DNA of 64,000 nt from an uncultured Gammaproteobacteria bacterium. GTDB taxonomy: Bacteria > Patescibacteriota > Patescibacteriia > Magasanikbacterales > UBA922. Positions 1,425 to 22,001 of this stretch are shown here, piece by piece (the stretch's first letter is position 1; each line of letters opens with the position of its first letter). A program made the translations under genes and the position numbers. The notes beneath the pieces are model-generated. The model had not been told where the DNA came from. It was given only the letters and a program-made list of their open reading frames with translations, and did not search any database. Location of the stretch: assembly GCA_964550845.1 (NCBI GenBank), contig CAZKAD010000002.1, forward strand, positions 11,377 through 75,376, given 5' to 3'.

Positions 1425-1446
1425 TCATTGTCAAGACTTTTTGAAG

Positions 1447-1527
1447 TGTTTAACCAATTCAGGGAGTCCTTTTGAGGACGTTTAAGTTCGATTAAGCAAT
1501 TTAATTAGTCCCAAAGGACGTTTAATG
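1447..1527 (+). repeat. GTTTAACC-hairpin repeat units x2-3 (GTCCT-TTTGA-GGAC-GTTTAAG; GTCCC-AAA-GGAC-GTTTAATG)
   Basis: Direct reading; intergenic after the A32 stop. Confidence 0.7.
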
Positions 1528-2099: not shown

Positions 2100-3005
2100 C
2101 TAATGGTGAAAAACTTTTAATTCAATTTTATCCAACATTTGATAAATTTCTTTCCAAGAAGGTCTTTGAAGAGGGTCTTTTTGCAAACATCTATCGATCA
2201 GAGTTTTATATTCGTCCAAACAATCAGGCATCTCGTATTCTCCAGAAAGAATATTTGAAATGGTTAGACCTTCATCGAGATCGGCGAAAGGAGAATTCGG
2301 AGAAAGAAGTTCATAAACCAAAACTCCATAGCTCCAAATATCATGAGCATATGAATTACTACAGCCGAGTATCATTTCTGGAGGAATATAATCAACCGTT
2401 CCGGCAAAATCATTTGCTTGAGGAAGTCCTCTTCGTTCGGCATCAACAAACATCACCGATCCAAAGTCACATAGAATAACTTCATCCTGTGATTTAGTTC
2501 TAAATTTATTTGCTCGAGGACTTGAGACAATTTCACTATTTGACAAGAGAAGATTCTCAAGTTTTAAGTCTCGATAAATGATTCCTTCTGAATGGAGGAA
2601 GTCGAGAATCTTTGCGATTTGACGAAGATATCCAGGAATTTTTTTCTCTGGAAATCCATGTAGTTTGAGAGTAAAGAAATCAGTCGGATGATATTCGAGG
2701 ATAATACATTGATCAAATACTTTATCTCGTTTCTCGATTAAATCAATAAATTTACAAATTCCTTTACTTTGCCGATTTCCAATATATCGATAGAACGCGG
2801 CTTCATTAGTGAGTTTCCATTCTTCTTCACTTCCAACCAGAGTTCGTTGATGTTTGAGTGCATACTTTTTTGAACTTTTCTTTTGTTCGTCAACCTCGAA
2901 TGCGAGGTAAACCTTCGCATTTCCTCCTTTTTGGATGCAAGTTGAAACGACATATTTACCGATTTGTATTCCGGTCAGATTCATCTTCACTGCTACCATT
3001 GTCAT
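2100..3005 (-). CDS. Serine/threonine protein kinase
   Basis: Gly-rich loop IQKGGNAKVY, catalytic Lys in YALK, catalytic loop YRDLKLENLLL, DFG (CDFGS), APE-like PPE. ATG start confirmed at 3003-3005. Confidence 0.8.
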   Translation of the reverse strand: MTMVAVKMNLTGIQIGKYVVSTCIQKGGNAKVYLAFEVDEQKKSSKKYALKHQRTLVGSEEEWKLTNEAAFYRYIGNRQSKGICKFIDLIEKRDKVFDQCIILEYHPTDFFTLKLHGFPEKKIPGYLRQIAKILDFLHSEGIIYRDLKLENLLLSNSEIVSSPRANKFRTKSQDEVILCDFGSVMFVDAERRGLPQANDFAGTVDYIPPEMILGCSNSYAHDIWSYGVLVYELLSPNSPFADLDEGLTISNILSGEYEMPDCLDEYKTLIDRCLQKDPLQRPSWKEIYQMLDKIELKVFHH

Positions 3006-3282
3006 CTTTTCTTTCGGGAGAAAAGTCTTTTTTACGAACTTGACAAGTTTGAACTTGTGTTTTCTTCGAATATCGATCCCAAATTTCAGGCGGACAATCC
3101 TTTTTCGAGAGAGAAGATCTTACGGAATCAGTCAATTTGACTGAATATTCTCCAGCAGAAAGAAATTGTGTATTTTGCTCTTTCATCAGTCGGATCATCG
3201 TCTGACGAATTTTCGTCTCTTTCGCTTGAAGGGCGGCAATTTTTTGTTTCAATTGATACCAATCGCGAAGGAGATCGCTCAT
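2956..3282 (-). CDS. Hypothetical protein (charged, coiled-coil-like)
   Basis: ATG at 3280-3282 fused to the repeat core (GGTTAAAATG). The 3' end overlaps the kinase 5' end by ~30-50 nt in another frame. Confidence 0.45.
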   Translation of the reverse strand: MSDLLRDWYQLKQKIAALQAKETKIRQTMIRLMKEQNTQFLSAGEYSVKLTDSVRSSLSKKDCPPEIWDRYSKKTQVQTCQVRKKDFSPERKDDNGSSEDESDRNTNR

Positions 3283-3308
3283 TTTAACCAGTCCAAGAGA
3301 CGTTTAAT
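3283..3308 (+). repeat. Single degenerate GTTTAACC-hairpin unit fused to the ATG of gene 2956-3282
   Basis: TTAACCAGTCCAAGAGACGTTTAAT. Confidence 0.5.
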
Positions 3309-5712: not shown

Positions 5713-6279
5713 TTACAAGAGTTTCAAGACGTCAAAAAGTTGAGTCTCGAATTGTTGGAATAATTCAAGTTTTTGCTGATAATCCGGTTCAATTATATCA
5801 GCTATAACTCGATTATTTTGTTTGAGAGTTTCAAGTAATTTGAGACGTGTTGAATCTAAAGAGTTCAAATCAATTACAATTTGAAAATTACTCAATCGAT
5901 CTCCTGCAAGTAAACATTGTTCAATTTTATTTTCATCAAGAGTAAACTTTTCAAACTCTTCCGATAGTTGTTTCAGTTCAGGCACATCAAAAAAAGTTCC
6001 GTAGGAAGAAAGAAAAATTGCCCATGAAAACTTACTCCTTGATATTTGTTCCCGACGGGGAAAAATTTGCCAAACAAGACCTTTATTCAAAGCTTGAATA
6101 AAGAATTTAACCAAATTGAGATCTTCAAAAGAGGAATGAATATGTTCGTAATAAACTTCACCTCTCTCGGAAAGAGCAACATTTTTACCTTCTGTTTGCC
6201 GAGATATCTTATATGTCCCAACAGTTTCTCGGACACAAATTTCAATCCGAATAATTAGACAGTCTCGAGGAAAATTCAT
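5713..6279 (-). CDS. Paralog family A protein (unknown function)
   Basis: Start set at MNFPRD (ATG at 6277-6279). The track ORF N-terminus (NPSRI x4) is a translation of a 15-bp tandem DNA repeat in the promoter region. Confidence 0.6.
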   Translation of the reverse strand: MNFPRDCLIIRIEICVRETVGTYKISRQTEGKNVALSERGEVYYEHIHSSFEDLNLVKFFIQALNKGLVWQIFPRREQISRSKFSWAIFLSSYGTFFDVPELKQLSEEFEKFTLDENKIEQCLLAGDRLSNFQIVIDLNSLDSTRLKLLETLKQNNRVIADIIEPDYQQKLELFQQFETQLFDVLKLL

Positions 6280-6345
6280 TCTTGATGGATTGATTCTTGA
6301 TGGATTGATTCTTGATGGATTGATTCTTGATGGATTGAGAATGAT
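6280..6345. repeat. 15-bp tandem repeat (cttgatggattgatt) x4 immediately 5' of the ATG of gene 5713-6279
   Basis: Direct reading. Confidence 0.85.
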
Positions 6346-6481: not shown

Positions 6482-7879
6482 ATGTCAACTGAAGGGGAAA
6501 AAGAGAATGTCGAAGAAATTAAAATTCCCGAAGACGAATCAAAGATTGACGATGAAAAGATCGAAGAAGAGAAGGTTAATGATGAAAATTCGGAGAAACA
6601 TTATTCCGATTTGAAATCGGCTATCTTGAAAGGACATAATGTTTTTCTCACTGGTCCCGGAGGAACAGGTAAAAGTTACCTCATTCGGCGTCTGGTCAAA
6701 GAACTTGCCACTAATGCATACTATCAAAATATTGCTCTGACCGCAACTACTGGAGTGGCAGCTGAAAATATTCAAGGATGTACTCTTCATTCATGGGCTG
6801 GGATCGGAATTGGTAATCGATCTTATGATTATTACACAACTCGACTTCAAAAAGATGAAAACAAACGAGAATCGTGGACAAAGTGCAATCTTCTCATTAT
6901 TGACGAAGTTTCGATGATGGGAAAGAAATTGTTCCATTTACTCGACCACATCGGAAAGGTACTTCGAAGATCAATTCGTCCATTTGGAGGAATTCAACTA
7001 ATTTTTTGTGGGGATATGTGTCAACTTCCTCCAGTTGAAGATGAATATTGTTTTACTTCAGGATTGTTTGATAAATGTCAATTTTATTTTATCAAACTCA
7101 CTCATCCATGGAGATTTGTATCAGACTTGGAATATTTTCAGCTTTTGTTGAGAGTTCGACTTGGTGAGCAAACTCCACAAGATATTGCTCGTCTTGAAAC
7201 GAGAAAATGCTCGATGTTTCGAGACTTGGGAAATGAAGAAGGTGCTCTTCGTCCAACTCGCCTCTTTTCACGAAAAATGGATGTTCAAGAAATGAACATT
7301 GAAGAATTGAATAAATTGCCTGATCAAGAATATCATTATCAATCACATGATTCACTGATTCAGAAAAATCAAAAAGTCAAAATTAATCCTGAATATTACG
7401 AACAATTAATGGACAATCAACATCATCGTTTGACTCGATTGAAAAAAGGTGCACAAGTCATGTTAACTCGAAATATTTCGATTGAGCGAGGTTTAATTAA
7501 TGGATCACGAGGAGTGGTACTCGAATGTCATGATTCAACTGTGATGGTCAAGTTTCGAAAATGCGAATATTTAGTCACACCTTCTACCGTTGAGTATGAA
7601 GATGAAAATTGTAAATATCGACGTGTACTGATGCCTCTTATTCTTGCCTGGAGCATGACCATTCACAAATCTCAATCGGCAACTCTTGATTATGTGATTG
7701 CCGATCTTGGAACAAGTTTATTCTCGAAAAATATGGGTTACGTGGTCTTATCAAGATGTCGTTCTCTTGATTCGATTTTTCTGAATAATTTATTGCCCGA
7801 ACGAATTGAATGTGATCCATTGGCAAAAGAATTTGAGAAAAAGATTGATCGACAACTCGAGAAACAAAAGACGAGTTAA
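6482..7879 (+). CDS. PIF1-like 5'-3' DNA helicase (SF1B)
   Basis: Walker A LTGPGGTGKSYL, Walker B IIDEVSMM, and PIF1-like C-terminal motifs. AAAATTGA at 6443-6450 (-39). Confidence 0.85.
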   Translation: MSTEGEKENVEEIKIPEDESKIDDEKIEEEKVNDENSEKHYSDLKSAILKGHNVFLTGPGGTGKSYLIRRLVKELATNAYYQNIALTATTGVAAENIQGCTLHSWAGIGIGNRSYDYYTTRLQKDENKRESWTKCNLLIIDEVSMMGKKLFHLLDHIGKVLRRSIRPFGGIQLIFCGDMCQLPPVEDEYCFTSGLFDKCQFYFIKLTHPWRFVSDLEYFQLLLRVRLGEQTPQDIARLETRKCSMFRDLGNEEGALRPTRLFSRKMDVQEMNIEELNKLPDQEYHYQSHDSLIQKNQKVKINPEYYEQLMDNQHHRLTRLKKGAQVMLTRNISIERGLINGSRGVVLECHDSTVMVKFRKCEYLVTPSTVEYEDENCKYRRVLMPLILAWSMTIHKSQSATLDYVIADLGTSLFSKNMGYVVLSRCRSLDSIFLNNLLPERIECDPLAKEFEKKIDRQLEKQKTS

Positions 7880-7922
7880 ACTTGCACAGGATTAGTTAAA
7901 CATCTCTCTTCTTGGATAAAGA

Positions 7923-8285
7923 ATGGAGACTTTTCAAACTTGTTTTAATCAATGTTCACTTTCGGCTGACAGTTTGACTGAATTACTTTCAATTGATTCA
8001 AATCAATTCGAAGTTTTGAAAGTCCACGAATGGACTGTCAATTTGTCAAAAACATCAGTTAAACTAAAATGTCAGTCAATTGAATTGTATTGGAACTATT
8101 CAATCGAAGAAGTTGAAATTTTTATTTTCTTTGAACTACTTGCTTTACAGGCACAAATTAAAAGATATTCGAGTCAGTTTCTTCTCTCTTCATCAAGCAA
8201 TTTTTCGGGAGATGCGTCTCTCTCCTCTTCCGGAAGTTCATTTTGCCTCGTCACGTCTTCAACAGAAGAATCACTGTCTCTGTAA
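7923..8285 (+). CDS. Doubtful hypothetical ORF
   Basis: Its 3' end overlaps minus-strand ORF 8174-8689 by ~110 nt. No recognisable motifs. Confidence 0.2.
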   Translation: METFQTCFNQCSLSADSLTELLSIDSNQFEVLKVHEWTVNLSKTSVKLKCQSIELYWNYSIEEVEIFIFFELLALQAQIKRYSSQFLLSSSSNFSGDASLSSSGSSFCLVTSSTEESLSL

Positions 8286-8689
8286 TCAGGATCTTGATCA
8301 TAATCATTTCTTGGATCTTCATCGTCATGACAAAAATCGTCATCTTTGTGTTCAAGCCCATATTGACGAGCTTGATTGAAAGTTTTCTGATCAATCTTCA
8401 ATTCAAGTGAAAAATTAGTCAAAGAAAGTTCCCTGTTGTTCGGTTCGCGAATGAAACATTCAGGACAAAGATCAAAATCGCATTCAACACAGGAAAACAT
8501 TCCGTAAATCTTTTCGGTTCTGTTGATGGAGCGAATTAATAGGTAATCACGTTGACAGCAGTCGCAAATTCGGTACCAAATACTTGACGAATGAGTCGAA
8601 GGGCATTGAATTCGATCAACGTTGAAGAAGAATTTATGTGGATGATTTGGGTAATTGTACAAAGTGGGGGAAATTGTATGAGTTTCCAT
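8174..8689 (-). CDS. Cys-rich (zinc-finger-like) protein with acidic tail
   Basis: CDCC...CVEC...CPEC cluster, acidic C-terminus. ATG fused to the repeat array (GGTTAAATGG). Confidence 0.45.
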   Translation of the reverse strand: METHTISPTLYNYPNHPHKFFFNVDRIQCPSTHSSSIWYRICDCCQRDYLLIRSINRTEKIYGMFSCVECDFDLCPECFIREPNNRELSLTNFSLELKIDQKTFNQARQYGLEHKDDDFCHDDEDPRNDYDQDPDYRDSDSSVEDVTRQNELPEEERDASPEKLLDEERRN

Positions 8690-8870
8690 TTAACCAGTCT
8701 CGAAAAGACGTTTAACCAGTCTCGAAAAGACGTTTAACCAGTCTCGAAAAGACGTTTAACAAGTCTCAAAGAGACGTTTAATTAATTCAAAGAACGTTGT
8801 GGAAATAATATTCTCCGAAAAGAATATCATTTTTAACCAATTCAAAAAGTCTTGAAGAGACGTTAAATTA
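8690..8870 (+). repeat. Tandem array of 22-bp units CCAGTCTCGAAAAGACGTTTAA x4, plus one degenerate distal copy
   Basis: Direct reading. The last unit supplies the ATG context of gene 8174-8689 (GGTTAAATGG on the minus strand). Confidence 0.9.
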
Positions 8871-9159
8871 AAATTAGTCGAATTATATCTTCCTCTAAAA
8901 TTTGATCTGCTTCAAATATAGCTGTCCTTAACAGCTGAATAAACCAAGTACGAATAACAATCAATCCTTCTTCCGATAAAACGACTTCAATTTTTGACTG
9001 TTTATCAAATAAAACAAGAGTTAATCCATGTGTCCGATCTTCAATTTGATGACTGCTAAACAATTCGCTCTTTTTGGCTTCATTTACAAGCTTTTCGAAC
9101 GAAATTGCTAAAAAGAGGGAATTTTGAAATGACTCTTGTTTTTGCTGAACAAGGTCCAT
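8863..9159 (-). CDS. Hypothetical protein
   Basis: AAAATTGA on its own strand at -51 (9210-9217). Confidence 0.45.
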   Translation of the reverse strand: MDLVQQKQESFQNSLFLAISFEKLVNEAKKSELFSSHQIEDRTHGLTLVLFDKQSKIEVVLSEEGLIVIRTWFIQLLRTAIFEADQILEEDIIRLILI

Positions 9160-9274: not shown

Positions 9275-9682
9275 ATGAAGTTTCAAACTGTCTACGGAGT
9301 TTTAATCTCAGAAACAGATTTGTTATCTTCTGTATCTCCGAAGAATGAGAGCAAATATCATCTTTCAATAGCTCAACTTCAGCCAATATTTAATCGGCGC
9401 GATTCGATCGGTGATGCAACTATAGAAAAATATTTTCCGGGTTTGCTTCATTTGATCAAAGAATGGGAACTTCGTTTACTTCCGGCACCAAACTATATGT
9501 GTCCTCAAAATCGGCCACATTATGTTTTCGGTCTCTTCTCAGAGAATATTAACTTTCATATTTGCCCAACAGAAGAAATGAAACAAACATTAGTGATGTT
9601 GAAGAAATATTTCAATATCAATCAGGAATGTAAATATTTTTACTTTAATCCGAAGGCGTTTAACCACTTCAATAAGTCTTGA
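9275..9682 (+). CDS. Hypothetical protein
   Basis: AAAATTGA at -37. The last 10 codons are encoded by a GTTTAACC-hairpin repeat unit. Confidence 0.5.
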   Translation: MKFQTVYGVLISETDLLSSVSPKNESKYHLSIAQLQPIFNRRDSIGDATIEKYFPGLLHLIKEWELRLLPAPNYMCPQNRPHYVFGLFSENINFHICPTEEMKQTLVMLKKYFNINQECKYFYFNPKAFNHFNKS

Positions 9683-9695
9683 AGATACGTTTAAG
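9657..9695 (+). repeat. GTTTAACC-hairpin unit overlapping the 3' end of CDS 9275-9682 and leading into the ATG at 9701
   Basis: GGCGTTTAACCACTTCAATAAGTCTTGAAGATACGTTTAAG. Confidence 0.6.
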
Positions 9696-9700: not shown

Positions 9701-10297
9701 ATGATTTTTTCTCTCTGCGGAGATGAAAAATTCAAAGCTCCCGACATTTTCGTCAAAAAAGATTCATCAATGTTGTTCTATTTGATTGAACGTGGATCTC
9801 GAAAGATGCTCATTTCACTTGAGTCTGCAAATCAGGAACTACTTGATATTTTCCATCTCTTCTTTTCGAATAGCAGAAGAAAAACCCTGATTTCGGAGGC
9901 AAAAGATGTTTCTGGAAAATACTTCCATCTTTATTCTCGTACATTTCTCGAGGATGGACAAAGAACAGATGAATTTCATCTTTTCTTTGATGATGTGAGC
10001 GATCATCCTCAACGACAGTGGGGTAATCAAATTCCAGGATTAAATACCTACCAAAAAACATTTTTCTGGGAACTTTACATCCGAGGACCAATTTCTCAAA
10101 TTGTTAAGTTGTCTCCTCAAGAGATGAACGTGCCTGTTCCATCTCCCTTCTTAACACAGCAATCAAGCTATCGAAAGGAACCTGTGCATTCTTCAACGAA
10201 AAAGCAAGATTATTTGCCTTATGGAGATACTCTTTCGATGCTTACCTTAAGATCTCCAGATCAAAGAAGAGTGGTTCGAATTCGACCAAGAGCATAG
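9701..10297 (+). CDS. Hypothetical protein
   Basis: Start context GTTTAAGTAAAAATGATTTT. Confidence 0.5.
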   Translation: MIFSLCGDEKFKAPDIFVKKDSSMLFYLIERGSRKMLISLESANQELLDIFHLFFSNSRRKTLISEAKDVSGKYFHLYSRTFLEDGQRTDEFHLFFDDVSDHPQRQWGNQIPGLNTYQKTFFWELYIRGPISQIVKLSPQEMNVPVPSPFLTQQSSYRKEPVHSSTKKQDYLPYGDTLSMLTLRSPDQRRVVRIRPRA

Positions 10298-10305: not shown

Positions 10306-10334
10306 ATTCCTTTCTTTTCGAAGAAAGAAATTAA
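10306..10334. terminator. Palindrome CTTTCTT-TTCGAA-GAAAG between convergent genes
   Basis: Direct reading. Confidence 0.45.
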
Positions 10335-10340: not shown

Positions 10341-10958
10341 CTAAATAAATTTAACCGGAAAATCAGCCTGCAGTGTACCTGGAATTGGGCAATCAATGTC
10401 TCCGAGATGAACTTTCTTATCTCGAGACCACTTTTTGAGTAAATTACTTGAACATTTCTCAAAGACAAGAACATGGTATCCTCCACGGGTCTCAATAATA
10501 GTTGGAGGAACGTTTTCAACTTTAAGATCTTCAAGGAGTTCGGGAAGATCCTTTTTATCATCAAGATCAAAAGAGAGGCATTCGGTTTTTGCCGAAGATC
10601 GCCTGACTGCAGAGATCAATTCTCGATCTAATTCGCGAGTTTGATTGTTATCAACGAAACGAGACATAAATCTTTTCAACAGTAATCGTTCAGCTTCATC
10701 TTTACTTCTTCCGTTAGTAGTTGAATAAAAGGCGAAATGCCCAGTTTCATTTCGGAGCGCAAAATTCAGCAGTTCAACTTCTTCTCGAAATTGTTCGGCT
10801 GTCAAAGAATTGCACAGTAAAAATCTTTCTTTTTTGTTTGTTCCTCCATATTTCGCACGATCAATGGTAAAAATCACTTGAAGGGTAGATGAAGATTGAA
10901 TCAATTGAGCAAATCTTTCGATTTGAGCTGGATCATGAATTCGAGACTTGATTTCCAT
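10341..10958 (-). CDS. Hypothetical protein
   Basis: Start CTTAAATGG fused to repeat unit. Convergent palindrome 10306-10334 lies at its 3' end. Confidence 0.5.
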   Translation of the reverse strand: MEIKSRIHDPAQIERFAQLIQSSSTLQVIFTIDRAKYGGTNKKERFLLCNSLTAEQFREEVELLNFALRNETGHFAFYSTTNGRSKDEAERLLLKRFMSRFVDNNQTRELDRELISAVRRSSAKTECLSFDLDDKKDLPELLEDLKVENVPPTIIETRGGYHVLVFEKCSSNLLKKWSRDKKVHLGDIDCPIPGTLQADFPVKFI

Positions 10959-11016
10959 TTAAGTAGACTGAAAAATGTTTAACTCTCAAAAGGACCTTGA
11001 GGATGTTTAACCATAT
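10959..11016 (+). repeat. Two TGTTTAAC units flanking hairpin CTCAA-AAGGACC-TTGAG
   Basis: Direct reading; between two minus-strand genes. Confidence 0.6.
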
Positions 11017-12203
11017 AAAACTGGTGGGCCATAAGGATTAGTCATCACTGGATCGGCACCGATTGCAATCTTCCGTTTACTTTCAAACAAATGGGATACA
11101 CCAGGAATAACATCATCACCTGGAAGATTCCAAGTCGTTTGTGGAGCCGAATAATGATAGCGATTTTTAATTCCATAAGTTGGGTCAGTATAAGCCAGAT
11201 ATTCGACTGTATTGCTAATTGGAACGTCAGCCATTGAAACTTCGGGCATCTTGTTTTCAAGTAGTGCAAGTTCTTGATGGTCATACTTTTCAACATTACT
11301 AACTGCCGAAGGATTAACTGTCACTTGTAGATCATATTTGTCTTTCAATTTCGTCTTTGATTCAATCACCAATTCAACAACTGCCGTTGGAGCTGATTGC
11401 TTAACAGTCCAAGTATAATCTTTCAATCTAATCGTCTTTCCTTGGAAAGGTAGCTCGAGGATTGAATGAGCAGCAGCTGCCATTGCAACTGCCATTGGAT
11501 CTTTGAGTTTGAGGGGAACTGTTATTTCTCCATCAGAAAGTGTTGTTTTGGCAACTGGTGTAATCAATGTAATCAAATCTCTATCGCGAATATACTTAAT
11601 TGTTCTTACACGAGTCGCAGTTGTTTCCTCTGTCGGAGCAACTACACCTTCCATTGCTGAATAAGGTTTGTAAGTGATACTTGGTTTAACACCTTTTTCA
11701 ACACGATCAGTCTTGGTGTAGACTGCCGAAGGAACAACAGTAGTCACAATCTTTTTTGACGTCAAAGCAATTTGACTTGGATGAATCGGATGATTAATAT
11801 CGGCATAAGGAGTTTCAGTTGGAAAAGACACTGATGTCAAAGGACGAGGTTCTTGCGAATAATAATCCATCGGCAATCTTCCCTCCATTTGGTAATGCCA
11901 ACCTCCCGGAGGTTGACTAAATGGATCGGTTGCAATTATTCCTTTTCCAATACCTGAAGGCTGTTTGAGTTCTTGATTCAAATATAGACTACCGGCTTGA
12001 CCCATTCCCTGAGCAGGATTATTCGCCCTCGGAAACTTACGGATATATTCCGACATATCATGATTCTCGGAGTTTTGAATCACTTCTCCAATATCGACTT
12101 TGTCGTTTCTCGGTGCCATTCGTTGTTCATAATATTTGTTTGCACCGATATTTGAAACCCGGTAATCCAAATCAAGTGTATCGTATTTCGGGAATCCGAA
12201 CAT
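11007..12203 (-). CDS. Hypothetical protein (Pro/Thr/Val-rich, possible virion protein)
   Basis: 398-aa ORF with clean ATG. No catalytic motifs recognised. Confidence 0.5.
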   Translation of the reverse strand: MFGFPKYDTLDLDYRVSNIGANKYYEQRMAPRNDKVDIGEVIQNSENHDMSEYIRKFPRANNPAQGMGQAGSLYLNQELKQPSGIGKGIIATDPFSQPPGGWHYQMEGRLPMDYYSQEPRPLTSVSFPTETPYADINHPIHPSQIALTSKKIVTTVVPSAVYTKTDRVEKGVKPSITYKPYSAMEGVVAPTEETTATRVRTIKYIRDRDLITLITPVAKTTLSDGEITVPLKLKDPMAVAMAAAAHSILELPFQGKTIRLKDYTWTVKQSAPTAVVELVIESKTKLKDKYDLQVTVNPSAVSNVEKYDHQELALLENKMPEVSMADVPISNTVEYLAYTDPTYGIKNRYHYSAPQTTWNLPGDDVIPGVSHLFESKRKIAIGADPVMTNPYGPPVLYG

Positions 12204-12255: not shown

Positions 12256-15099
12256 ATGGACTCGGTACTCTCAGCCTTTATCCAAGCTCATCGAGCCGAT
12301 GATCGTGAGACCCATTACAATTTCGTTAGCACTCTTCGACCAAAAGGACGTTACCTTTTTGATCGTGCTCAACTCGAAGAATTAATGAAATTGTATTGTA
12401 AGAGGCTAAATGATATTCCCAATATGATGTCCGGATTGGGAGAAATGCCTCAAGAGTATTCCATGTTAGTTGTTGATGCAGATATTAAGAAAACATTACT
12501 CGAACTTGAAGAAAAGTACAAGACGGATAATGAAGGAAAAAATGTCATTCCTTTTAAACAAGTCGATGAAAAAGGAATGATTACATACAATTATCTTCCC
12601 CCTATTTATACAGAACTTCAAGTTCGACAAGTAATTGCCGCTTATCAATTTGTAATGCAACAATTGACTCGTGATTTTGAGAACAATTATGCAATTTGTA
12701 TTTTGCTTGAGAAGAAACCTTATATTAGTGATGATTATCTGAAATCAGGTTTTCATTTAGCTTTCATTAACTACTTTTGTGAAAAGTCTATGATGGATAC
12801 TTATCTTATCCCTCGTGTTGTAGATAAAGTTAATGAAATGCGAATTTTCCATAGTCTTGGATTTGGAACTTCAAGTGATGTGTTAGATATTTCGAAGAAG
12901 ATGCACCATTCGAAGCCGTGGATGATGTATGGATCAAGGAAAAACGAATATTCTGGATTTTATCAAGTGACTCGAGCCTTTGGAATGAATGGTGTTGAAA
13001 TATCTCTCGATGAAGCTTTTCGAGGATATCAACTCTTCGATCATTATCAAAGACCGATTGATATTTCTCAAAACCGAGCTTACCATTATCCAAGAATTTT
13101 TAGCGTCAATCCAACTTATCGGAAAGTAGTTGAAATAGCTCCTACCTTTGACCCCCGGGACGTTGGTGTTGAAGTTTATCAAGACAAGAAGAATAGTAAT
13201 CAGAAACCCGATCTTGACTATGAAGAGAGAATGAAATTGGCTCGCGAGCTTGTCCCATTGTTGAGTGCTGAACGGGCTGAAAATCATGATTTATGGATAG
13301 AAGTTGGTTGGGTATTGAAATCAATTAGTGAAGGTTCAGAGGAAGGATTGCAATTATGGAACGAATTTTCAATGAATTGTCCTGAGAAGTTTAATGATGC
13401 AGATAATATGAGGCGTTGGGCCAAAATGTACATCGGAAACTTTAAAATTGGTCGACTGAAACAATTTGCCAAAGAAGATTCTCCTGAGGAGTATCGCGCA
13501 TTGATGAGCACTCGTTTTGAAGCCCGAATGGATGAAGCCAGTATGTCAAGAACTCATAACGACTTAGCCAAAGCTTTGTATGAACAATATTCCGAAGAGT
13601 TTGTTTGCGTATCAAAGAAAAAGAACCTTTGGTTTCAGTATCGAGATCATCATTGGATGCCATGCGAAGAGGGAATTGAACTGAGTAAGAAAATTTCTGA
13701 TGATCTGGCACAAGAGTACTACAAAAAGAGTGGCGAGTTTCTCGATAATTCAAATAATATCGGAAATGAGGGCAAAAACAAAGATATTATGGCGAAATTC
13801 AAAATGGTCAGCGATTTAATCATTAAGTTGAAAACCAATTCATTTAAGAATTCAATTATGAAGGAATGCGCTGAAGTCTTTTATGATCGAGAATTTCTTC
13901 GTAAACTTGGTCAAAACAAATATTTAATTGGGCTCAAGAATGGAGTCTACGATTTGAAAGAACATAAATTCCGTGAAGGGAGAGCCGATGATTATATTTA
14001 CCATCAATTGCCGATTTATTTTCGAGAATATAATGAAAATGATCCATGGGTGATTGAAACTCAAACGTTCTTTGAAAAAGTTATAGTCGATGATCAACTT
14101 CGAGATTATTTCCTTGATCGAATGGCCGAAGTATTGATTGGTGGCAACAAACGTAAACATGTCTATTTCTGGACCGGAAGAGGTAATGCTGGTAAATCTA
14201 TGACTATGGAACTGTTTTCGAAGATGTTGGGCGAATATTGCAAAGAAGTGCCAAATTCTCTTTTTGTCGGAGATAAACCCAAAACAGGTCAAGCCTGCCC
14301 TGAACTTGCCAGAACTGATAAAGGTGTTCGACTCGTTTGTACACAAGAACCAAATAAGAAAGATCGAATCAATACTGGAGCGATTAAGGAATATTCGGGT
14401 AACGATCGTATCTTTGTTCGAGGTTTGTATGAAGATGGTGGAGAAATGCTCCCTCTATTTAAGATGGTCATGATTTGTAATGATCTTCCTGAAGTCACCA
14501 ATAATGATCTTGCTTTTTGGAATCGAGTTCGTGTGATTGAGTTTGGGAGTAAATTTGCTTACAATGCACCAGTTTCCGAAGACGAACAATTTGAAAAGAG
14601 AATCTTTCCAAGAGATGATTTATTGGGTGAAAAATTTGAGCATATGGTCGAACCTTTATTTTGGATGCTTGTTCAACGATTGAAGAAGATTCCGATTAAG
14701 ATCAAAGAGCCTGCTTGTGTCACTGATGCAGGTGAAAAATATCGACGATCTCAAGATGTCTACAGTAAGTTTATTGATGAACGTATCATTGTCGATGAAA
14801 AAGGAACAGTCAATATTAATGAAATGTATGTTTCATTCAAAGATTGGCATAAATCAACCTACAATAGCGGTCGACCTTTGCCATCCAAAGATGACATGTT
14901 TTCAAATATTGCTGACATGTGGGGAAATGCGATTAAGTTTTCTTGGCCTGGATATCGACTTCGACAAGAAAAAGATGACATTGCCGAAGGAAAAGCTGAA
15001 AAACATACTTCGTTTGACTTATCGAAACAGTTGGGTAAAGTACTTGGTATGCCAAATGGAATTGGAATGGTTAATCCACTTGCGACTCAACAAGCGTAA
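12256..15099 (+). CDS. D5-like primase-helicase (AEP primase plus D5N plus SF3 helicase)
   Basis: SF3 Walker A WTGRGNAGKSMT, D5-family architecture, 947 aa. AAAATTGA at 12217-12224 (-32). Start CTAAAATGG. Confidence 0.9.
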   Translation: MDSVLSAFIQAHRADDRETHYNFVSTLRPKGRYLFDRAQLEELMKLYCKRLNDIPNMMSGLGEMPQEYSMLVVDADIKKTLLELEEKYKTDNEGKNVIPFKQVDEKGMITYNYLPPIYTELQVRQVIAAYQFVMQQLTRDFENNYAICILLEKKPYISDDYLKSGFHLAFINYFCEKSMMDTYLIPRVVDKVNEMRIFHSLGFGTSSDVLDISKKMHHSKPWMMYGSRKNEYSGFYQVTRAFGMNGVEISLDEAFRGYQLFDHYQRPIDISQNRAYHYPRIFSVNPTYRKVVEIAPTFDPRDVGVEVYQDKKNSNQKPDLDYEERMKLARELVPLLSAERAENHDLWIEVGWVLKSISEGSEEGLQLWNEFSMNCPEKFNDADNMRRWAKMYIGNFKIGRLKQFAKEDSPEEYRALMSTRFEARMDEASMSRTHNDLAKALYEQYSEEFVCVSKKKNLWFQYRDHHWMPCEEGIELSKKISDDLAQEYYKKSGEFLDNSNNIGNEGKNKDIMAKFKMVSDLIIKLKTNSFKNSIMKECAEVFYDREFLRKLGQNKYLIGLKNGVYDLKEHKFREGRADDYIYHQLPIYFREYNENDPWVIETQTFFEKVIVDDQLRDYFLDRMAEVLIGGNKRKHVYFWTGRGNAGKSMTMELFSKMLGEYCKEVPNSLFVGDKPKTGQACPELARTDKGVRLVCTQEPNKKDRINTGAIKEYSGNDRIFVRGLYEDGGEMLPLFKMVMICNDLPEVTNNDLAFWNRVRVIEFGSKFAYNAPVSEDEQFEKRIFPRDDLLGEKFEHMVEPLFWMLVQRLKKIPIKIKEPACVTDAGEKYRRSQDVYSKFIDERIIVDEKGTVNINEMYVSFKDWHKSTYNSGRPLPSKDDMFSNIADMWGNAIKFSWPGYRLRQEKDDIAEGKAEKHTSFDLSKQLGKVLGMPNGIGMVNPLATQQA

Positions 15100-15102: not shown

Positions 15103-15125
15103 ATTTTCTCTCCTCGAAAGGAGAT
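15103..15125. terminator. Palindrome TCTCC-TCGAAA-GGAGA between the D5 stop and the convergent small gene
   Basis: Direct reading. Confidence 0.45.
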
Positions 15126-15601: not shown

Positions 15602-18600
15602 TTAATTCATTGCGCTGTCTTCAAGTGGATCTTCAATTGGTTCAGTTTCAACCTTCAAATCAATACCCATTGCGCGAACATACTCCGAAAGCAATTTGAA
15701 AGGGTAAGGAATTTTGACTGGATTTAACTCCGCATTGAGACATTTACATTTTTTGATTTGTGAATAAGTTCCACAAACGCTGCAAACTTTGGTTTCATAT
15801 TTATCACTGCTTTCCAACATTCTTTCATTTAGCGCAAAGGCAGCACCATGAGAATTTAGAGCATCATCTTCCATTTGTCCGAAACGAATGGCCGCTTGAT
15901 CGGGACCGTTCTTTCGCCCTGAATTTACAGGTTGTCCAGTTACAAACTTCTTTGGTCCAAGAGACTGAGCTGAAAGCTTATCTTGAATAAAATGAGTCAA
16001 TGCTCGATAATAAGTCGGACCAATAAAGATGGAACAAGGTAATAATTCGCCTGTTCTTCCACAAATCATCATTTCGTCTCCATGACGTTGAAAACCATGT
16101 TGAACTAGTTTTGAGCCAACCATATCGATGTAATTCTTCATATAACTTTTATCTTCTGAAAAAGAAGGAGATCCATCGTAGTTTTCTCCTGTACACAAGG
16201 AAGCTTTGCCGCACACCGTCTCAATTAATTGACCAATTGTCATACGAGACGGAATACAATGCGGATTAATGATAATATCAGGTCGGATCCCTTCACTTTT
16301 ACCATCAGCGCAAAATGGAAGGTCAACTTCTGACATGATCATTCCAAGTGTACCTTTTTGTGCATGAACACTGGCAAATTTCGAACCCATTAACGGATTG
16401 CGAATAAAACCAAGTCTAACTTTGACTAATTTGGCGCCTTCTGAACTTGTAGTGATTAGAATATCATCAACAAATCCTTCTTCTTCAAGACGATGTACAA
16501 CTGAAATATCATGTCGTTGTTTTGGTTTGCCTTTCTCTTCCTTTTCTTCAATTTTACGAATCAAAACGTCACCTTTACAAACAGTTGAACCTTTACGAAT
16601 AATTCCGTTTGGACCAAGTTTGAGATAATTGTAGTTTCGATTAATAGTTTCAATTGGATTAAGAAGATCAACAGGGCAAATTTTCTTTGCAAGCTCTTCA
16701 ACTTCTGTGATCACCTTGTAGACGGTTGAAACAAATAAACCTCGTTGAATTGAAGCTTTGTTCATGACGATACTATCCTCAACATTCCAACCTTGACTCA
16801 TAATCGCCACAATCGCGTTGATACCAGATGGTAACTCGTTGTAACCGAGATATTCACTCATTTTGGTACTAATCAAAGCTCGTTGAGGATAATGTAATTG
16901 ATAGGAAGTTGTTTCGAAACGGGTCAAAAACATAGTTGACCAAATTCCAACAGCTTGTTTAGTCATTGAAGCCGAATAGATATTACGAGGACCTTGATTA
17001 TGATTGAGAAAAGGCACTATGCTACAACAAACTCCAAGAATAGTACATGGATGAATTTCACAATAGTGAGTCTTTTCATCAACTTGACCTGGATAAAGAG
17101 CCAAATTTGATGTTTGTTCTTCGAGTTTATCGACATAGACTATTTTACCTTCACGAAGAAGATCATACCACGTTTTTCCAGAGACTTCTTGATCACTTTT
17201 AATCAGAAGCTCTCCATTTTCACATGCAAATAGTGGACGCATACAACGACCACCATCTGTATAACAATGAAACTCTTTGATTTTTTCTTGATAAGAGAGA
17301 CTGATTTCTCCATGAAAGAGGCTATCTCGACGAGCTTTCTTTAGCTTATTTAATAGCTGATGAGGTTTTTCTGAAACTCCAATCAGCGCGCCATTCAAAA
17401 ATACTTTAGCTTGGTGACAATTTTCAAATGACATTTGTTGATCGAATTCATCAACGTTCATTCGTATTAGAACTGCAACCAAGGGTTGTTCTGAAACTGG
17501 TGTTGTAATATGGGCCAGAATAGCGAGATTTTTAATAATACCTGCTTTTTCACCCTCTGGAGTTTCAGAGGGATCTGTGATACCCCACTGACTGTTATGC
17601 AACAGACGAATATCTACTGCAGTTGATTTTGAACTACAAGTTGCCGATGATCTTCGAGTGTGAGAAATCGCTGACATATGGTTTTTCAATACCATTGCTT
17701 GGCAAATACCTTCGGCTGTATAACCTGTTCCCGGAACACCCCAATTACCCGTGCTCATTGCATTATGAATTGATTTACTCAGACTTTCATCAGTGGTAAA
17801 CTTCTCATAAGCAGCAGGATGAAAATTTAGTTCTTTAACCATTCTTTCATTGTAATACTTTTCAAACAATGGTCGAAAAAGCATTTCGAGCAAAGGTCCA
17901 TCAGTATCAAACTTTCGATTTGCAAAGTTGTCGCGGTCATCTTTAGGCAATCTGCCCAAAAAGGCAAGAATTACTTTGCGAATCATATAAGCAAGATAAA
18001 AGGGACGAAGTTTAATTGGAACATGAGCCAACACTAAACACTGAAACAACTCTCGAAGAAAATCTTGATGCTTATCACTGGTTACGTTTGGATTAATATT
18101 TCCGATCAGAATCTGATAAATATCTCTTTTTTGTGCATTGAATGTATTGATCATCTGACGAATACAATCTTGTACTTGATAGTCTTGTGAATCATCGCAA
18201 ATCATCAAACTCATTTTCTGAGTTGTATCTTCCTCAAATTTCCACAGTCCGGTATAGAAACCAAGCGTGTGAAAAAATACTCCAATTGGAATATCATTAC
18301 TGAATGAAGGTACAGAAGTGACAATTGTTTTGTCTGCTTTAACTTTTAAACTCAAAATATAAGGTTTTGTATTGTTGATGACTACAGATCTAACTTCAAT
18401 CATTGCTGTAAAAGATGTTGGTGGAGGACGGATAAAGTCTCGATTGTAAGGATCTCGTTCTCGTACAATTGTACAACGATGATTTCCATTGATAATATAA
18501 TATCCTCCTTTGTCGTATTCACATTCTCCGAGTTTTGCAAGCTCTTCTTCAGTCTTTCCTGATAGATGGCAAAATTTACTTTTGAGCATCAATGGAATTG

Positions 18601-21066: not shown

Positions 21067-21246
21067 CCAGTCTTAAAGAGACGTTTAAAACATTGAAAAT
21101 TATCTCTCTTTTCGAAGAGAGATAATAAATTTGACCTGGATATAAAGATTATTCAATAAAATTATTGTGTAAATGTATTTGTTGCGGGAAATATTTAGGG
21201 GCAAAATCATGATGATTTGTATTTAAAAATAATTGTTATTTTAAAA

Positions 21247-21918
21247 ATGGCCGAAGAGAAAATAAATATAATGAATATAACAAAAGGTCTCCATTTTGAC
21301 GAAGGCTATATCAACTGGCAATTAAATAGGGTACTTTTTCTCATTAATTTAATGGGACGTGATTTCTTTCAGGGAAAGAAAATGCTCGAGCTCGGATCTT
21401 ATCAAGGTGGAATTACTCAAATGTTTCATAATTTAGGAGCGAATATAACTGGTGTAGAGGGATCAAAGAAAAATTTGGAGTTTGCTAGAACTAAATATCC
21501 GCATCTGACATTTATCGAAGGAGATTGTGATGATACAACTTGGAGATATGACGAAAAATATGATATCATTATTCATTGGGGATTATTGTATCATCTTAAA
21601 ACTCCCAAAGAATCGATATTGAATTGTATAGCCCATTGTGATATTTTATGTTTAAAGACTCTTGTTATTGATAAAACTATTCAAGAAGTTAATTTTGTTA
21701 ATGAAGACAATGTTCATAAGCCGGATCAGGCACTGAACGGTACGGGATCTCGTCCCACAGCATCCTATATCGAACAAATATTGACAGATTCTGGAACTAT
21801 GTGGACACGTTATGATAATACAGAACTTAATTCCAAATATCAACCTTGTTATTCAGCTGCTGACAAAAATACCGGTGGTACATATAGACGCTTTTGGGTA
21901 GTACACACACGTAAGTAA
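21247..21918 (+). CDS. Class I SAM-dependent methyltransferase (substrate unknown)
   Basis: Motif I LELGSYQGG, acidic end of beta-2 (GVEGS), motif II FIEGDCDD, motif III DIIIHWGLLYHL. Start set at first ATG (TTTAAAAATGG); track start is TTG. Confidence 0.6.
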   Translation: MAEEKINIMNITKGLHFDEGYINWQLNRVLFLINLMGRDFFQGKKMLELGSYQGGITQMFHNLGANITGVEGSKKNLEFARTKYPHLTFIEGDCDDTTWRYDEKYDIIIHWGLLYHLKTPKESILNCIAHCDILCLKTLVIDKTIQEVNFVNEDNVHKPDQALNGTGSRPTASYIEQILTDSGTMWTRYDNTELNSKYQPCYSAADKNTGGTYRRFWVVHTRK

Positions 21919-21975
21919 CAATCCAAAGGGATGTTTAACCGCTTTGACTGATATAATAATCTCGAAAAAATGATC

Positions 21976-21995
21976 TATCTCTCTTCGAAAAGAGA
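21976..21995 (+). promoter_or_regulatory. Perfect palindrome TCTCTCTT-CGAA-AAGAGAGA 4 nt upstream of ATG 22002
   Basis: Direct reading. Confidence 0.5.
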
Positions 21996-22001
21996 GATAA
22001 A

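Follow-up and report, generated by a model that had tools for sequence, protein, structure and literature searches.

A 'hairpin rule' has been reported for the Mimiviridae, Pithovirus and Marseilleviridae (Byrne et al., 2009; PMC4402537, PMC5413956), and the palindromes of giant viruses that follow it show no conservation at the nucleotide level (PMC4402537). The repeat units described here share several properties with this system, including spacer palindromes that go with the upstream stop codon no matter which way the downstream gene points, their common use by convergent genes, and an A+T-rich NCLDV genome with a AAAATTGA-type promoter motif. However, unlike the hairpin-rule palindromes, the units, analysed here in genomic sequence, possess a TTAAAC core that does not vary and a stem of the stereotyped form GTYYN/NRRAC. 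They also differ in that their stems are only 4–5 bp long, they occur in tandem and vary between strains, and the same genome has ordinary palindromes as well. A second point of comparison is the poxvirus late initiator TAAAT(G/A) (PMC5294985), which resembles the fusion of the unit core to the ATG of five genes as TTAAATG or TTAAAATG. Poxvirus late promoters lie on the 5' side of genes and point towards them, and transcription begins at their TAAAT with 5' poly(A) heads. In contrast to these promoters, the units lack an A/T-rich T-run core ~6 bp upstream of the initiator, and unlike the initiator itself they are also found in convergent spacers, in anti orientation and at stop codons, as TTAAAC rather than TAAAT.

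Short palindromes of this general kind are found in bacteria as well. REP/BIME and the Rickettsia palindromic elements are spacer palindromes of 35–150 bp that often lie at gene 3' ends, and they are clustered, strain-variable and occasionally located in frame within ORFs. The units likewise are short spacer palindromes with clustering, strain variation and occasional in-frame copies within ORFs, but they are ~22 bp long, strictly tandem, built on a fixed direct-repeat core and carried by a eukaryotic virus. Among the NCLDV, the family A repeat of Emiliania huxleyi virus 86 is a promoter-like nonamer directly upstream of genes, and the intergenic arrays of Pithovirus are kilobases long with units of ~150 bp. 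The units resemble both in being lineage-specific non-coding repeats at regular intergenic positions of an NCLDV, and differ from both in their core-plus-mini-hairpin build and their anchoring at stop codons. The motif strings were not found in the giant-virus papers searched.

The DNA that was analysed is a 64 kb stretch, referred to below as the window, of a 223 kb genome of an unclassified NCLDV. The nearest named relatives of its RPB2 are cellular polymerases and all close relatives are metagenomic contigs, so an assignment to the iridoviruses, as in the earlier note, is not established; in the databases searched, the polymerase of this lineage has no named viral relatives. The genome layout is that of the Mimivirus-type 'hairpin rule'. 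AAAATTGA-like promoter motifs are found 30–60 nt upstream of 33 of the 74 genes, and perfect palindromes of at least 6 bp, unrelated in sequence to the units, occur in 10 of the 13 convergent spacers and also immediately past many stop codons. Such unrelated palindromes also lie between AAAATTGA and the ATG in divergent spacers, and the hairpins of this virus are therefore not confined to 3' signals. The units have much shorter stems than these palindromes, and a role as their substitutes was rejected because the two showed no negative association (tandem spacers with both, 10; units only, 5; palindromes only, 15; neither, 9). Hairpin-rule signals are associated with mRNA 3' ends and poly(A) addition inside the hairpin, and with viral genes for an RNase III-like enzyme and a poly(A) polymerase. 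Neither an RNase III nor a poly(A) polymerase was detected by Pfam among ~60 ORFs of the window that were scanned, which says little given that the window represents only ~29% of the genome.

Each unit is 20–22 bp long and is composed of a TTAAAC core, mostly present as TGGTTAAAC, followed by a tiny stem-loop; units are frequently arranged in tandem. The consensus is TGG-TTAAAC-[GTYYN loop NRRAC], without the extra G that had been placed between core and stem. The family occurs far beyond chance in shuffle controls. Strict units, defined as TTAAAC plus a hairpin with a 4–5 bp stem, number 34 in 64 kb against 2.3 ± 1.5 expected from Markov shuffles, and GTTTAAC is found 38 times against 7.9 ± 2.7 in dinucleotide shuffles, with 0 of 100 shuffles reaching 38. 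Intergenic DNA makes up 11% of the window, yet holds 31 of the 33 TTAAACGT copies. When these copies were chosen by the core alone, 22 of 33 were directly followed by a Watson-Crick hairpin of at least 4 bp, compared with 2.4% of all GT sites. The scope of the unit counts is the 64 kb window and a few related loci. No Rfam family matched anywhere in the window at the gathering threshold. Each of the 18 loci listed in the earlier note has a unit or a degenerate copy, and further units are located at 7876–7901, 21921–21938 and 29131–29149. The loci are as follows.

298–420, minus strand: one good unit (322–339) and one decayed copy, within a tandem duplication of 60 nt located in the sequence for the N-terminal linker of the A32-like ATPase (ORF 129–1424).

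1436–1527, minus strand: three units with stems ACTT/AAGT, GTCCT/AGGAC and GTCC/GGAC, in the tandem spacer from ORF 129–1424 (plus) to 1538 (plus), anti-oriented to both genes.

3283–3308, minus strand: one unit, GTCT-CTT-GGAC, with a U·G pair on the minus strand, joined to the start codon of ORF 2956–3282 as TGGTTAAAATG.

7876–7901, plus strand: two TTAAAC cores with weak hairpins, the first core containing the stop of the PIF1-like helicase ORF 6482–7879.

8690–8870, minus strand, the flagged locus: occupies the entire 173-nt spacer from ORF 8863–9159 (minus) to ORF 8174–8689 (minus). Read along the minus strand, it starts with the stop TAA (8865–8863) within a TTTAAC core and the hairpin GTCT-CTTCA-AGAC, continues with the AAAATGAT motif and an unrelated 7-bp palindrome (8808–8827), then one degenerate and four good units (8781–8697), and ends in TGGTTAAATG, whose ATG is the start of ORF 8174–8689.

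9657–9695, minus strand: a degenerate unit over the stop codon of ORF 9275–9682, ending 5 nt before the ATG of ORF 9701–10297.

10959–11016, minus strand: degenerate units across the whole 48-nt spacer, the first core containing the stop of ORF 11007–12203 (TTAA/AC, the slash marking the boundary) and the last fused to the ATG of ORF 10341–10958 (TTAAATG).

21064–21090, minus strand: one unit whose beginning lies within the stop codon of ORF 19708–21066 (RPB1 C-terminal part), followed by AAAATTA and an unrelated 12-bp palindrome.

21921–21940, minus strand: one unit, ATCC-CTTT-GGAT, 2 nt past the stop of the methyltransferase ORF 21247–21918.

29131–29244, plus strand: an array of 5–6 units, GTTCT-TAA-AGAAC, whose final core runs into the ATG of ORF 29242–29805 (TTAAATG); the array is 79 nt downstream of the stop of ORF 28455–29051, which has its own palindrome and AAAATTGA.

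30841–30872, plus strand: one unit, GTCC-TTCG-GGAC, in frame within the 5' end of ORF 30357–30911 (minus).

34341–34467, plus strand: an array of five units in a divergent spacer, GTCT-TTC-GGAC, with a U·G pair on the plus strand and periods of 20 and 29 bp; the final core runs into the ATG of ORF 34465–35193 and the first adjoins AAAAATTGAT of the opposite-strand ORF 33563–34303.

41943–41987, plus strand: two units with TTAAAT cores, GTCC-GAAA-GGA and GTCC-TTCT-GGGA, the sole hairpins of a 31-nt convergent spacer, overlapping both stop codons.

43822–43876, minus strand: three units, their stems in part decayed, located ~25 nt before the ATG of ORF 43443–43799.

44204–44262, minus strand: a unit GTCCT-TTT-AGGAC and a flanking core, 17 nt past the stop of ORF 44252–45733.

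49733–49868, plus strand: an array of five units, three of 22 bp (GTCTC-TTC-GAGAC) and two of 31 bp (GTCCT-TAT-AGGAC), beginning at the stop codon of ORF 49863–50540 (minus) and anti-oriented to both flanking genes.

51114–51192, minus strand: an array of three units, GTTC-TGCG-GAAC, directly past the stop of ORF 51187–51579 (TAA/TTAAAC) and 59 nt before the next ATG.

52944–53027, minus strand: three units in a convergent spacer, adjoining the stop of ORF 53022–53570 (minus); the other gene has its own unrelated palindrome (52921–52938).

61003–61036, minus strand: one unit, GTCCT-TTC-AGGAC, in a convergent spacer, its core holding the stop of ORF 61030–61800 (minus) (TGA/TTAAAC); the SNF2 ORF on the other side is served by an unrelated hairpin.

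61880–61915, plus strand: a near-symmetric unit, TTTTAAAC-GTCCC-TTC-GGGAC-TTTTAA, 2 nt past the stop of ORF 61910–62563 (minus), followed by AAAATTGAT and a 13-bp palindrome.

The earlier statement that units always sit at gene junctions does not hold for every locus. The copies at 298–420 are inside the conserved N-terminal part of the A32-like ORF, where they are translated in frame (..LISPSGRL..) in a segment missing from homologues of 55–59% identity; 30841–30872 is inside ORF 30357–30911, and 9657–9695 overlaps the 3' end of ORF 9275–9682.

Units abut or overlap the stop codon in 11 of the 15 spacers that have a stop boundary, and the core also contributes TAA stop codons to upstream genes. 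Of the 12 spacers that leave 20 nt or more free, 6 have units within 3 nt of the stop (p = 1.4e-4 under random placement), whereas the start is abutted in only 2 (p = 0.23). In long spacers the units keep to the stop; the following ATG is 59–158 nt away, and the AAAATTGA of its gene lies in between. Units at 21064, 21921 and 61880 in the window, and at L048 4474–4633 and L045 7116–7192 on related contigs, lie between the stop and the AAAATTGA plus palindrome of the next gene. With respect to the abutted upstream gene, ~5 loci are co-oriented and ~5 anti-oriented, a split that a palindromic signal would give. Bona fide units are present in 3 of the 13 convergent spacers of the window (41949–41979, 52884–53021 and 60961–61029), and 3 more such cases are on contig JACCDN010507572.1; the related-contig spacers are L045 5528–5570, L045 438–539 and L048 2282–2455, the last with five units. 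At window 41949–41979 and L045 5528–5570 the units are the sole hairpins of the convergent spacer. Divergent spacers have units in 1 of 14 cases, against 15 of 52 other spacers, which is only a trend at this sample size.

The stems of the units differ between loci (GTCTC/GAGAC, GTCCT/AGGAC, GTTCT/AGAAC, GTCCC/GGGAC, GTTC/GAAC, ATCC/GGAT) and the differences are compensatory. In an alignment of 9 unit variants of 13 nt taken from the window, 3 of the 5 stem pairs change on both sides and 97.8% of cells are paired, compared with 22–53% in slid controls; no variation is seen in the TTAAAC core or in the outer stem pairs, G-C and U-A. Single units fold weakly, at −1 to −4 kcal/mol, while arrays fold as nested hairpins of −24.6 and −38.9 kcal/mol, the latter being the RNA of 49733–49868, a nested super-hairpin with a z of −3.5. 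Due to U·G pairs and loop differences, the fold is more stable on the TTAAAC-reading strand in 7 loci and on the opposite strand in none, and 6 of these 7 have the sense sequence of the adjacent gene on the stabler strand. We set this asymmetry aside as proof of the transcribed strand and count it as weak evidence, because two TTAAACAT-type units (43868 and ~52996) show the reverse U·G pattern and the arrays are not independent of each other.

Within a locus, by contrast, the arrays are near-identical, as had been noticed earlier along with the between-locus variation of the stems. TRF reports repeats at 8689–8781 (22 bp ×4.2, 95%), 29150–29242 (22 bp ×4.2, 97%), 34343–34452 (20/29 bp, 100%), 43823–43871, 49735–49867 (22/31 bp, 100%) and 51118–51185 (21 bp ×3.2, 95%). 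Unit copy number also differs in a strain that is 97–98% identical to the window, and tandem copy-number changes are the only strain differences seen at the units. At 10959–11016 the close strain L002 has one core more than the window, and at 21921–21940 it has three units where the window has one. The TRF results and these copy-number differences support the proposal of local amplification on a conserved core. Gene duplication was rejected as the source of the arrays, since all-against-all BLASTP of the window proteins showed that the array-adjacent genes are not mutual paralogues. The only Logan contigs with ORF 29242–29805 are genomic and break 38 nt upstream of it, inside the array.

The family is confined to its lineage. 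Core and units are also present in a second virus contig, and they are absent from relatives of 50% identity. In a motif scan of metagenomes, true arrays were found only on JACCDN01 contigs (L045, L048 and L050); the matches in L046, L047 and L049 arose by chance, L046 being bacterial by Pfam. An IMG/VR scan gave 29 matches. Two of them have several copies (L021 and L034) and represent a repeat within coding sequence (..SVKRRN..) of an unrelated giant virus; all others are isolated matches that arose by chance.

Among the four functions suggested in the earlier note, a 3'-end signal is the best supported, and its description as a version of the Mimivirus hairpin rule is favored by the hairpin-rule genome, the abutment of stops, the convergent spacers and the use of either orientation. 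We therefore propose, at what we would call an even chance of being correct, that the units are a lineage-specific, sequence-stereotyped hairpin signal for 3'-end formation (termination or polyadenylation) that has been amplified by slippage. In this model, a unit would consist of a conserved A/T core and a 4–5 bp stem-loop in which pairing, not stem sequence, is maintained. Transcription of the upstream gene would enter the unit, usually starting in or beside the stop codon, and the RNA hairpin would set the 3' end of the transcript, probably being read together with the core by a viral factor. Because the hairpin is palindromic, it could function in either orientation and serve both genes of a convergent pair. 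The cores form direct repeats on both sides of the hairpin, which would make the units prone to replication slippage and thereby give arrays that are homogeneous within a locus; an array would then fold into a nested hairpin far more stable than one unit. In such a compact genome the core may also act as coding punctuation, with its TAA as the stop of the upstream gene and, in one orientation, the last core supplying the TTAAATG or TTAAAATG of the next. Several observations speak against the model: the weak folds of single units and their shortness beside the unrelated palindromes, the failure of units to replace those palindromes in any simple way, the occurrence of hairpins before start codons, and the start-proximal position of the two largest arrays.

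This last property raises the alternative that TTAAA(C/T) is a late-type promoter or initiator resembling TAAAT(G), with arrays as reiterated promoters that would drive the downstream gene strongly at late times. Five genes, all of them small ORFs without a significant Pfam domain match, have their ATG joined to the last core (TTAAATG at 8689, 10958, 29242 and 34465; TTAAAATG at 3282), and a TAAAT(G/A) late initiator is documented in poxviruses (PMC5294985). Starts of the form TAAATG show enrichment in the window (6 of 74, p = 0.007), 4 of these 6 being built from units, and the enrichment is strong in the 50% identical relatives (9 of 23 genes, p = 8e-9; 7 of 20 genes, p = 1.5e-5). The two largest arrays are start-proximal: 29131–29244 follows a gene with its own palindrome, and 34341–34467 is in a divergent spacer whose downstream gene has no other recognisable promoter. 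A 5' role is possible for these two arrays, and an initiator role is likewise possible for the five ATG-fused genes. However, units occupy at least six convergent spacers, where no promoter is needed, and about half of the loci are anti-oriented to neighboring genes, so a late promoter is not their general function. In long spacers, too, they stay with the stop and upstream of the next gene's AAAATTGA; start abutment is not significant once completely filled spacers are left out; and upstream of the core there is a G+C-containing hairpin plus TGG instead of an A/T-rich poxvirus late promoter core. A promoter-only reading does not fit this distribution, and we consider a late promoter an unlikely explanation of the family.

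Equally improbable, in our view, is that the units are selfish or neutral mini-palindromes, slippage-prone or mobile, that spread wherever they are tolerated, mostly in spacers, and have no function for the virus. Their rapid copy-number change between strains, homogeneity within a locus and restriction to one lineage are what such a repeat would give. Two copies are in frame inside ORFs, one of them in a lineage-specific 20-aa insertion in a variable linker, reminiscent of the Rickettsia elements; TTAA flanks each hairpin, although it is also part of the core; and units of like orientation tend weakly to lie together in the genome, a run of 8 loci sharing one strand (p about 0.08). Random placement in spacers nevertheless fails to produce the observed anchoring at stops. 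Covarying stems together with a core that is invariant over more than 30 copies and in the second virus contig imply selection on both the fold and the core. Furthermore, no associated transposase-like partner such as RAYT was seen, nor, in the strain comparison, any dispersed presence/absence polymorphism with target duplications.

A less probable reading still takes the units and the unrelated palindromes together as sites of a viral endonuclease, where a single cut in a read-through or polycistronic RNA would give the upstream mRNA its 3' end and the downstream mRNA its 5' end. Mimivirus has an RNase III, R343, that cuts 3' hairpins (PMC4402537). Both hairpin classes of this genome occur past stops and directly before ATGs, divergent spacers included, the arrays at 8690–8870 and 29131–29244 occupy the position of a 5' leader, with a AAAATGAT or AAAATTGA motif before them and the ATG after, and the sense-strand bias of the stabler fold points the same way. 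On the other hand, the stems are too short for a classical RNase III, no nuclease candidate was identified in the window, the association with starts is not statistically significant, and the NCLDV literature consulted offers no precedent for 5' ends made by hairpin cleavage. We regard this as very unlikely.

Integron attC sites have inverted core sites, RYYYAAC ... GTTRRRY, around an imperfect palindrome and are used by a tyrosine integrase. The unit core happens to fit both consensus strings, and it is invariant and nearly palindromic (GTTTAAC versus GTTAAAC), which, with the weak orientation clustering, could suggest a site for a DNA-binding protein (insulator, replication or packaging) or a recombination hotspot. 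Such a DNA-level element is extremely unlikely, since compensatory stem changes point to a single-stranded fold rather than a duplex recognition sequence, the cores flank the hairpin as direct repeats and not the inverted repeats of attC, no tyrosine integrase is present in the window and its sole recombinase (a serine resolvase-like ORF, 38946–39740) adjoins no array, the array-flanked genes are neither paralogues nor cassettes, and the anchoring at stop codons is left unexplained; the insulator and hotspot ideas of the earlier note find no specific support. A CRISPR array, in which identical repeats alternate with unique spacers, was rejected as the units are head-to-tail and the extra sequence in the 29- and 31-bp periods is itself repeated, and bacterial-type terminators were rejected on architecture.

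Returning to the 3'-end signal, a bolder version would hold that the units are recognised, by their sequence, by a viral factor dedicated to RNA processing or termination. The units would then punctuate both gene ends as one module of stop, 3' signal and start context, with a VNTR-like, quickly evolving copy number tuning termination strength or downstream expression. We consider this version unlikely. If true, it would be the first sequence-defined termination or processing signal of such a kind known from a giant virus, the poxvirus U5NU signal excepted. Giant-virus 3'-end signals have been described as palindromes defined by structure only, and a variant with an invariant core and a covarying mini-stem would indicate a factor that reads sequence. 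With such a variant, transcript ends and gene boundaries could be predicted simply in an uncultured NCLDV clade without an isolate, and it would reveal how such signals are born and amplified, by slippage between direct-repeat cores and growth of arrays into larger hairpins. The arrays can be used directly as strain markers. Finally, the layout of this genome, with AAAATTGA motifs, palindromes past stops and hairpins before starts, extends Mimivirus-like transcription punctuation to this virus lineage.

The repeat family is real, structured and lineage-restricted. The unit described in the earlier note, a TTAAAC core with a 4-5 bp mini stem-loop, is present at 8690-8870 and at 17/17 of the other loci listed there, and GTTTAAC has 38 occurrences against 7.9 ± 2.7 expected from shuffled sequence. 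TRF detected six arrays with periods of 20-31 bp and within-array identities of 82-100% (95-100% in five, 82% at 43823-43871), and the top four intergenic 7-mers of the window include ACGTTTA, GTTAAAC and CGTTTAA. In the reference orientation, P, the sequence reads TGG-TTAAAC-(stem, loop, stem)-TGG-TTAAAC; the extra G previously placed between core and stem is absent. Under a strict definition (TTAAAC followed directly by a hairpin of at least 4 bp with at most one G.U pair), 34 units occur in the window versus 2.3 ± 1.5 in Markov shuffles. To guard against circularity, copies were also selected by core only (TTAAACGT, hairpin ignored): 31/33 are intergenic, though intergenic DNA makes up 11% of the window, and a Watson-Crick hairpin follows directly in 22/33, against a 2.4% baseline at all GT positions. 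An alignment of nine distinct 13-nt stem-loops, extracted by window coordinates, had 97.8% of its cells paired (22-53% in slid-register controls). Three of the five stem pairs varied in both partners (positions 3 and 4, C-G/U-A; position 5, U-A/C-G/U.G), and the outermost pair is also changed in JACCDN010507572.1 (ATCCC/GGGAT). The location of units at gene junctions holds for most loci and not for all, with two loci inside ORFs, one overlapping an ORF 3′ end.

The window has a G+C content of 36% and is ~89% coding, with 73-74 genes in a simple ATG-ORF model. Pfam/domain scans of the ORFs identified NCLDV hallmark proteins.

Hallmark and other genes of the window
15602-19177, minus strand: RPB2
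12256-15099: D5/C962R-type primase-helicase
19708-21066: separate RPB1 C-terminal ORF
129-1424: A32-like ATPase
Further genes: PIF1-like helicase, SNF2 helicase, RPB5, kinases, glycosylases and others

This RPB2 is identical to a protein on a 223,513 bp NCBI contig and on Logan contigs of SRR10036081. We take the host of the window to be an unclassified NCLDV lineage, because the nearest relatives of RPB2 (67% and 44% identity) and of the primase (75%, about 50% and 37%) are all metagenomic sequences and the closest named or solved ones are cellular Pol II/III subunits; an iridovirus assignment made earlier found no confirmation. The RPB1 domain-5 region forms its own 452-aa ORF with its own AAAATTGA motif and stays separate in all relatives fetched (the near-identical strain L002, and L004 and L007 from a 67-75% identical relative); therefore, this lineage appears to have a split largest RNA polymerase subunit. 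Elsewhere, a serine resolvase-like ORF (38946-39740), with a weak match to a TNP-like GTP-binding domain, adjoins an unusually long 292-nt spacer (39741-40032), and together they may form an IS607-like mobile element. The PIF1-like helicase of a 50% relative (L043 5913-8279) carries an intein/homing-endonuclease insertion (Hom_end_hint, Hom_end) that is absent from the window orthologue (6482-7879). Coding tandem repeats, perfect or nearly so, at 6274-6338 (15 bp period), 54130-54194 (18) and 61573-61684 (18/27) have no relation to the unit family. ORFs 43443-43799 and 44252-45733 are separated by a 452-nt "spacer" that contains a 29-codon ORF alone, from an ATG at 44189; 43877-44190 looks like a decayed gene, with units bracketing both sides.

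When the 70 nt up- and downstream of every ORF were listed, gene punctuation proved very regular. Motifs resembling AAAATTGA (AAAATTGA, AAATTGAT, AAAATGAT, AAACTGAT and similar) lie upstream of 33/74 ATGs, mostly at 30-60 nt, and are probably a Mimivirus-type early promoter, in a lineage for which the searches made returned no named viral RPB2 relatives. Perfect palindromes of unrelated sequence, with stems of at least 6 bp, occur in 10/13 convergent spacers and behind many stops in tandem spacers. Many are of the type TTTCTTTTCCTC-TCGA-GGAAAAGAAA; in a common design, TCGA or GAAA forms the centre, with pyrimidines prevailing in the left arm and purines in the right.

Examples of punctuation elements
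ORFs 12256, 19708, 28455, 33563-34303, 46702, 55059: AAAATTGA-like motif
1858-1881, 10310-10327, 15109-15124, 25495-25518, 38924-38945, 56958-56981: convergent-spacer palindromes

With such motifs upstream and palindromes after stops, this virus resembles the Mimiviridae, which combine a AAAATTGA early promoter with the hairpin rule, mRNAs being cleaved and polyadenylated at palindromes without sequence conservation; Pithovirus and Marseilleviridae also follow this rule (PMC4402537; PMC5413956). The same grammar is present in the 67-75% relative (L004, L007), and the clade, that relative included, seems to follow the general hairpin rule. The hairpins of this virus are not exclusively 3′ signals, because unrelated palindromes also separate the AAAATTGA motif from the ATG and stop 0-3 nt short of the start codon (34303-34329, 51589-51614, 21976-21999, 38037-38060, 43374-43397); this is so even in divergent spacers (those of ORFs 33563-34303 and 51187-51579), which have no upstream gene in need of a terminator.

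Our best explanation, to which we give about even chances, is that the units are a sequence-stereotyped, slippage-amplified variant of this giant-virus 3′-end hairpin signal. They occupy 16 spacers (12/39 tandem, 3/13 convergent, 1/14 divergent) and abut or overlap the stop codon in 11 of the 15 that have a stop boundary. The TAA often falls within the first core (TTAA/AC at 7879, 11007 and 61030; TAA/TTAAAC at 51187; TTTAAC at 8863), as does the stop at L045 437 and L048 4473 (JACCDN01 contigs) and at L004 919. Where spacers leave at least 20 nt of free room, units lie within 3 nt of the stop in 6/12 (random placement, p = 1.4e-4). Long tandem spacers usually run stop, unit(s), AAAATTGA, unrelated palindrome, ATG (window 21064, 21921, 61880; L048 4474-4633; L045 7116-7192), which puts the units in the position expected of the upstream gene's terminator. 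Two convergent spacers have units as their sole hairpins (window 41949-41979; L045 5528-5570), and a third, L048 2282-2455, is filled by a five-unit array. Relative to the abutted upstream gene, about five are co-oriented and about five anti-oriented, which would be expected were the palindromic stem the decisive part. Because of this stop-side placement, the convergent spacers and the mixed orientation, we ruled out a promoter-only reading. In map order, loci one to eight (0-22 kb) are minus throughout, whatever the gene strand, and the four after them plus; this clustering is not significant across loci 322 to 61889 (runs test, p about 0.08).

A promoter of the TAAAT(G) type is thus contradicted as the general function, and we consider it improbable; it could still apply to five genes in which the last core is fused to the ATG.

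Core-ATG fusions
8689 and 29242: TGGTTAAATG
34465: AATTAAATG
10958: ACTTAAATG
3282: TGGTTAAAATG

All five fusions are P-oriented, and the genes are small ORFs with a significant Pfam domain match in 0/5. The window shows a modest enrichment of TAAATG starts (6/74, p = 0.007, four of the six made from units), and such starts are strikingly frequent, at 9/23 genes of L041 (p = 8e-9) and 7/20 of L043 (p = 1.5e-5), the relatives with ~50% identical primases. These starts recall the poxvirus late initiator, TAAAT(G) (PMC5294985), and by analogy a similar late initiator may operate in this clade. Abutment at both ends is unavoidable in three of the five fusions, because units fill those spacers completely. 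The remaining two are the largest arrays: the gene preceding 29131-29244 is already equipped with a palindrome and a AAAATTGA of its own, and 34341-34467 sits in a divergent spacer, its far end abutting AAAAATTGAT of the opposite gene. A pure 3′-end model does not account for these two. They possibly stop antisense read-through, which we propose because ORF 35177-35734 overlaps ORF 34465-35193 with no palindrome between; alternatively, the units may have an additional 5′ function. The gene at 29242-29805 belongs to a family of four ~190-aa paralogues without assigned function (also 5713-6279, 27760-28338 and 28455-29051), three of them in tandem, with an upstream unit array at this last one only.

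Arrays are dissimilar to one another between loci. In strain L002 (GCA_020049755.1; 97-98% identity in aligned spacers), three units follow the methyltransferase gene versus one in the window, and one core more lies upstream of the 10341-10958 orthologue. The homogeneous arrays and these differences bear out the proposal of local amplification on a conserved core, and copy-number change would fit slipped-strand amplification between the direct-repeat cores flanking each hairpin. Gene duplication was rejected as the source, the array-adjoining genes not being paralogues. A covariance model built from the nine window units matched 26 times in the window, 10 times in 17 kb of JACCDN contigs and three times in L002; both loci from the 67-75% relative gave a single marginal match each, and the two 50% relatives examined (L041, L043), where the unit family is absent, gave none. 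In the 67-75% relative, one or two junctions bear a few units of the form TTAAAC-ATCC-TTCG-GGGT. True arrays were confined to JACCDN01 contigs in a search of 241 million metagenome records, and of these contigs JACCDN010507572.1 is NCLDV-like (EsV-1-7 repeats, collagen, copine, kinase); an IMG/VR motif scan found no unit family, and the literature searched contained no mention of the motif in any virus. Matches to GGTTAAACGT on IMG/VR giant-virus contigs (L021 9690-9860, L034 3810-3970) were discarded as chance, reflecting a 21-bp coding repeat of an unrelated giant virus, ..(S/T)VKRRN...

The A32-like ORF contains a good unit and a decayed copy (298-420), both in frame and translated as ..LISPSGRL.. 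and ..LISPSERP.. within a 60-nt tandem duplication of the variable N-terminal linker; the 20-aa segment with these copies is missing from 55-59% identical homologues. This is reminiscent of Rickettsia palindromic-element insertions. A selfish or neutral mini-palindrome is contradicted by the stop anchoring and the covariation, and seems about as unlikely as a promoter. Start abutment is not significant (2/12 spacers leaving 20 nt or more free; random placement, p = 0.23), and we find it less likely still that the units are two-ended RNA processing punctuation. The compensatory stem changes, together with the invariant core, favour a single-stranded fold over a site recognised as duplex, and we consider it highly improbable that the units act at the DNA level as binding or recombination sites.

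The RNA fold of single units is weak (-1 to -4 kcal/mol), and arrays of identical palindromic units fold into a nested super-hairpin, with -24.6 kcal/mol on the P strand of 8686-8790 versus -19.5 on the other strand, and -38.9 kcal/mol (z = -3.5) for 49730-49870. Amplification therefore makes a marginal hairpin comparable with ordinary palindromes. The fold is better on the P strand at seven loci and on the opposite strand at none (U.G pairs or loop differences), and the better-folding strand is the adjacent gene's sense strand in 6/7. This asymmetry is just a hint at the transcribed strand, because the pattern is reversed in two units of the TTAAACAT type and arrays are not independent of one another.

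By analogy, then, the units would work like a hairpin-rule signal. The published rule concerns palindromes without sequence conservation, whereas the units are sequence-conserved and so depart from it in one defining feature; we class them as a putative variant of that kind and not as an established member, for which 3′ ends inside the hairpin would be the decisive feature. The A/T core would also supply a stop codon and, in one of its orientations, a TAAATG context for the start, and its sequence specificity suggests a dedicated factor that reads it. Nothing in these results overturns current understanding; the gene-punctuation grammar neatly extends a known principle to a clade that had not been studied.
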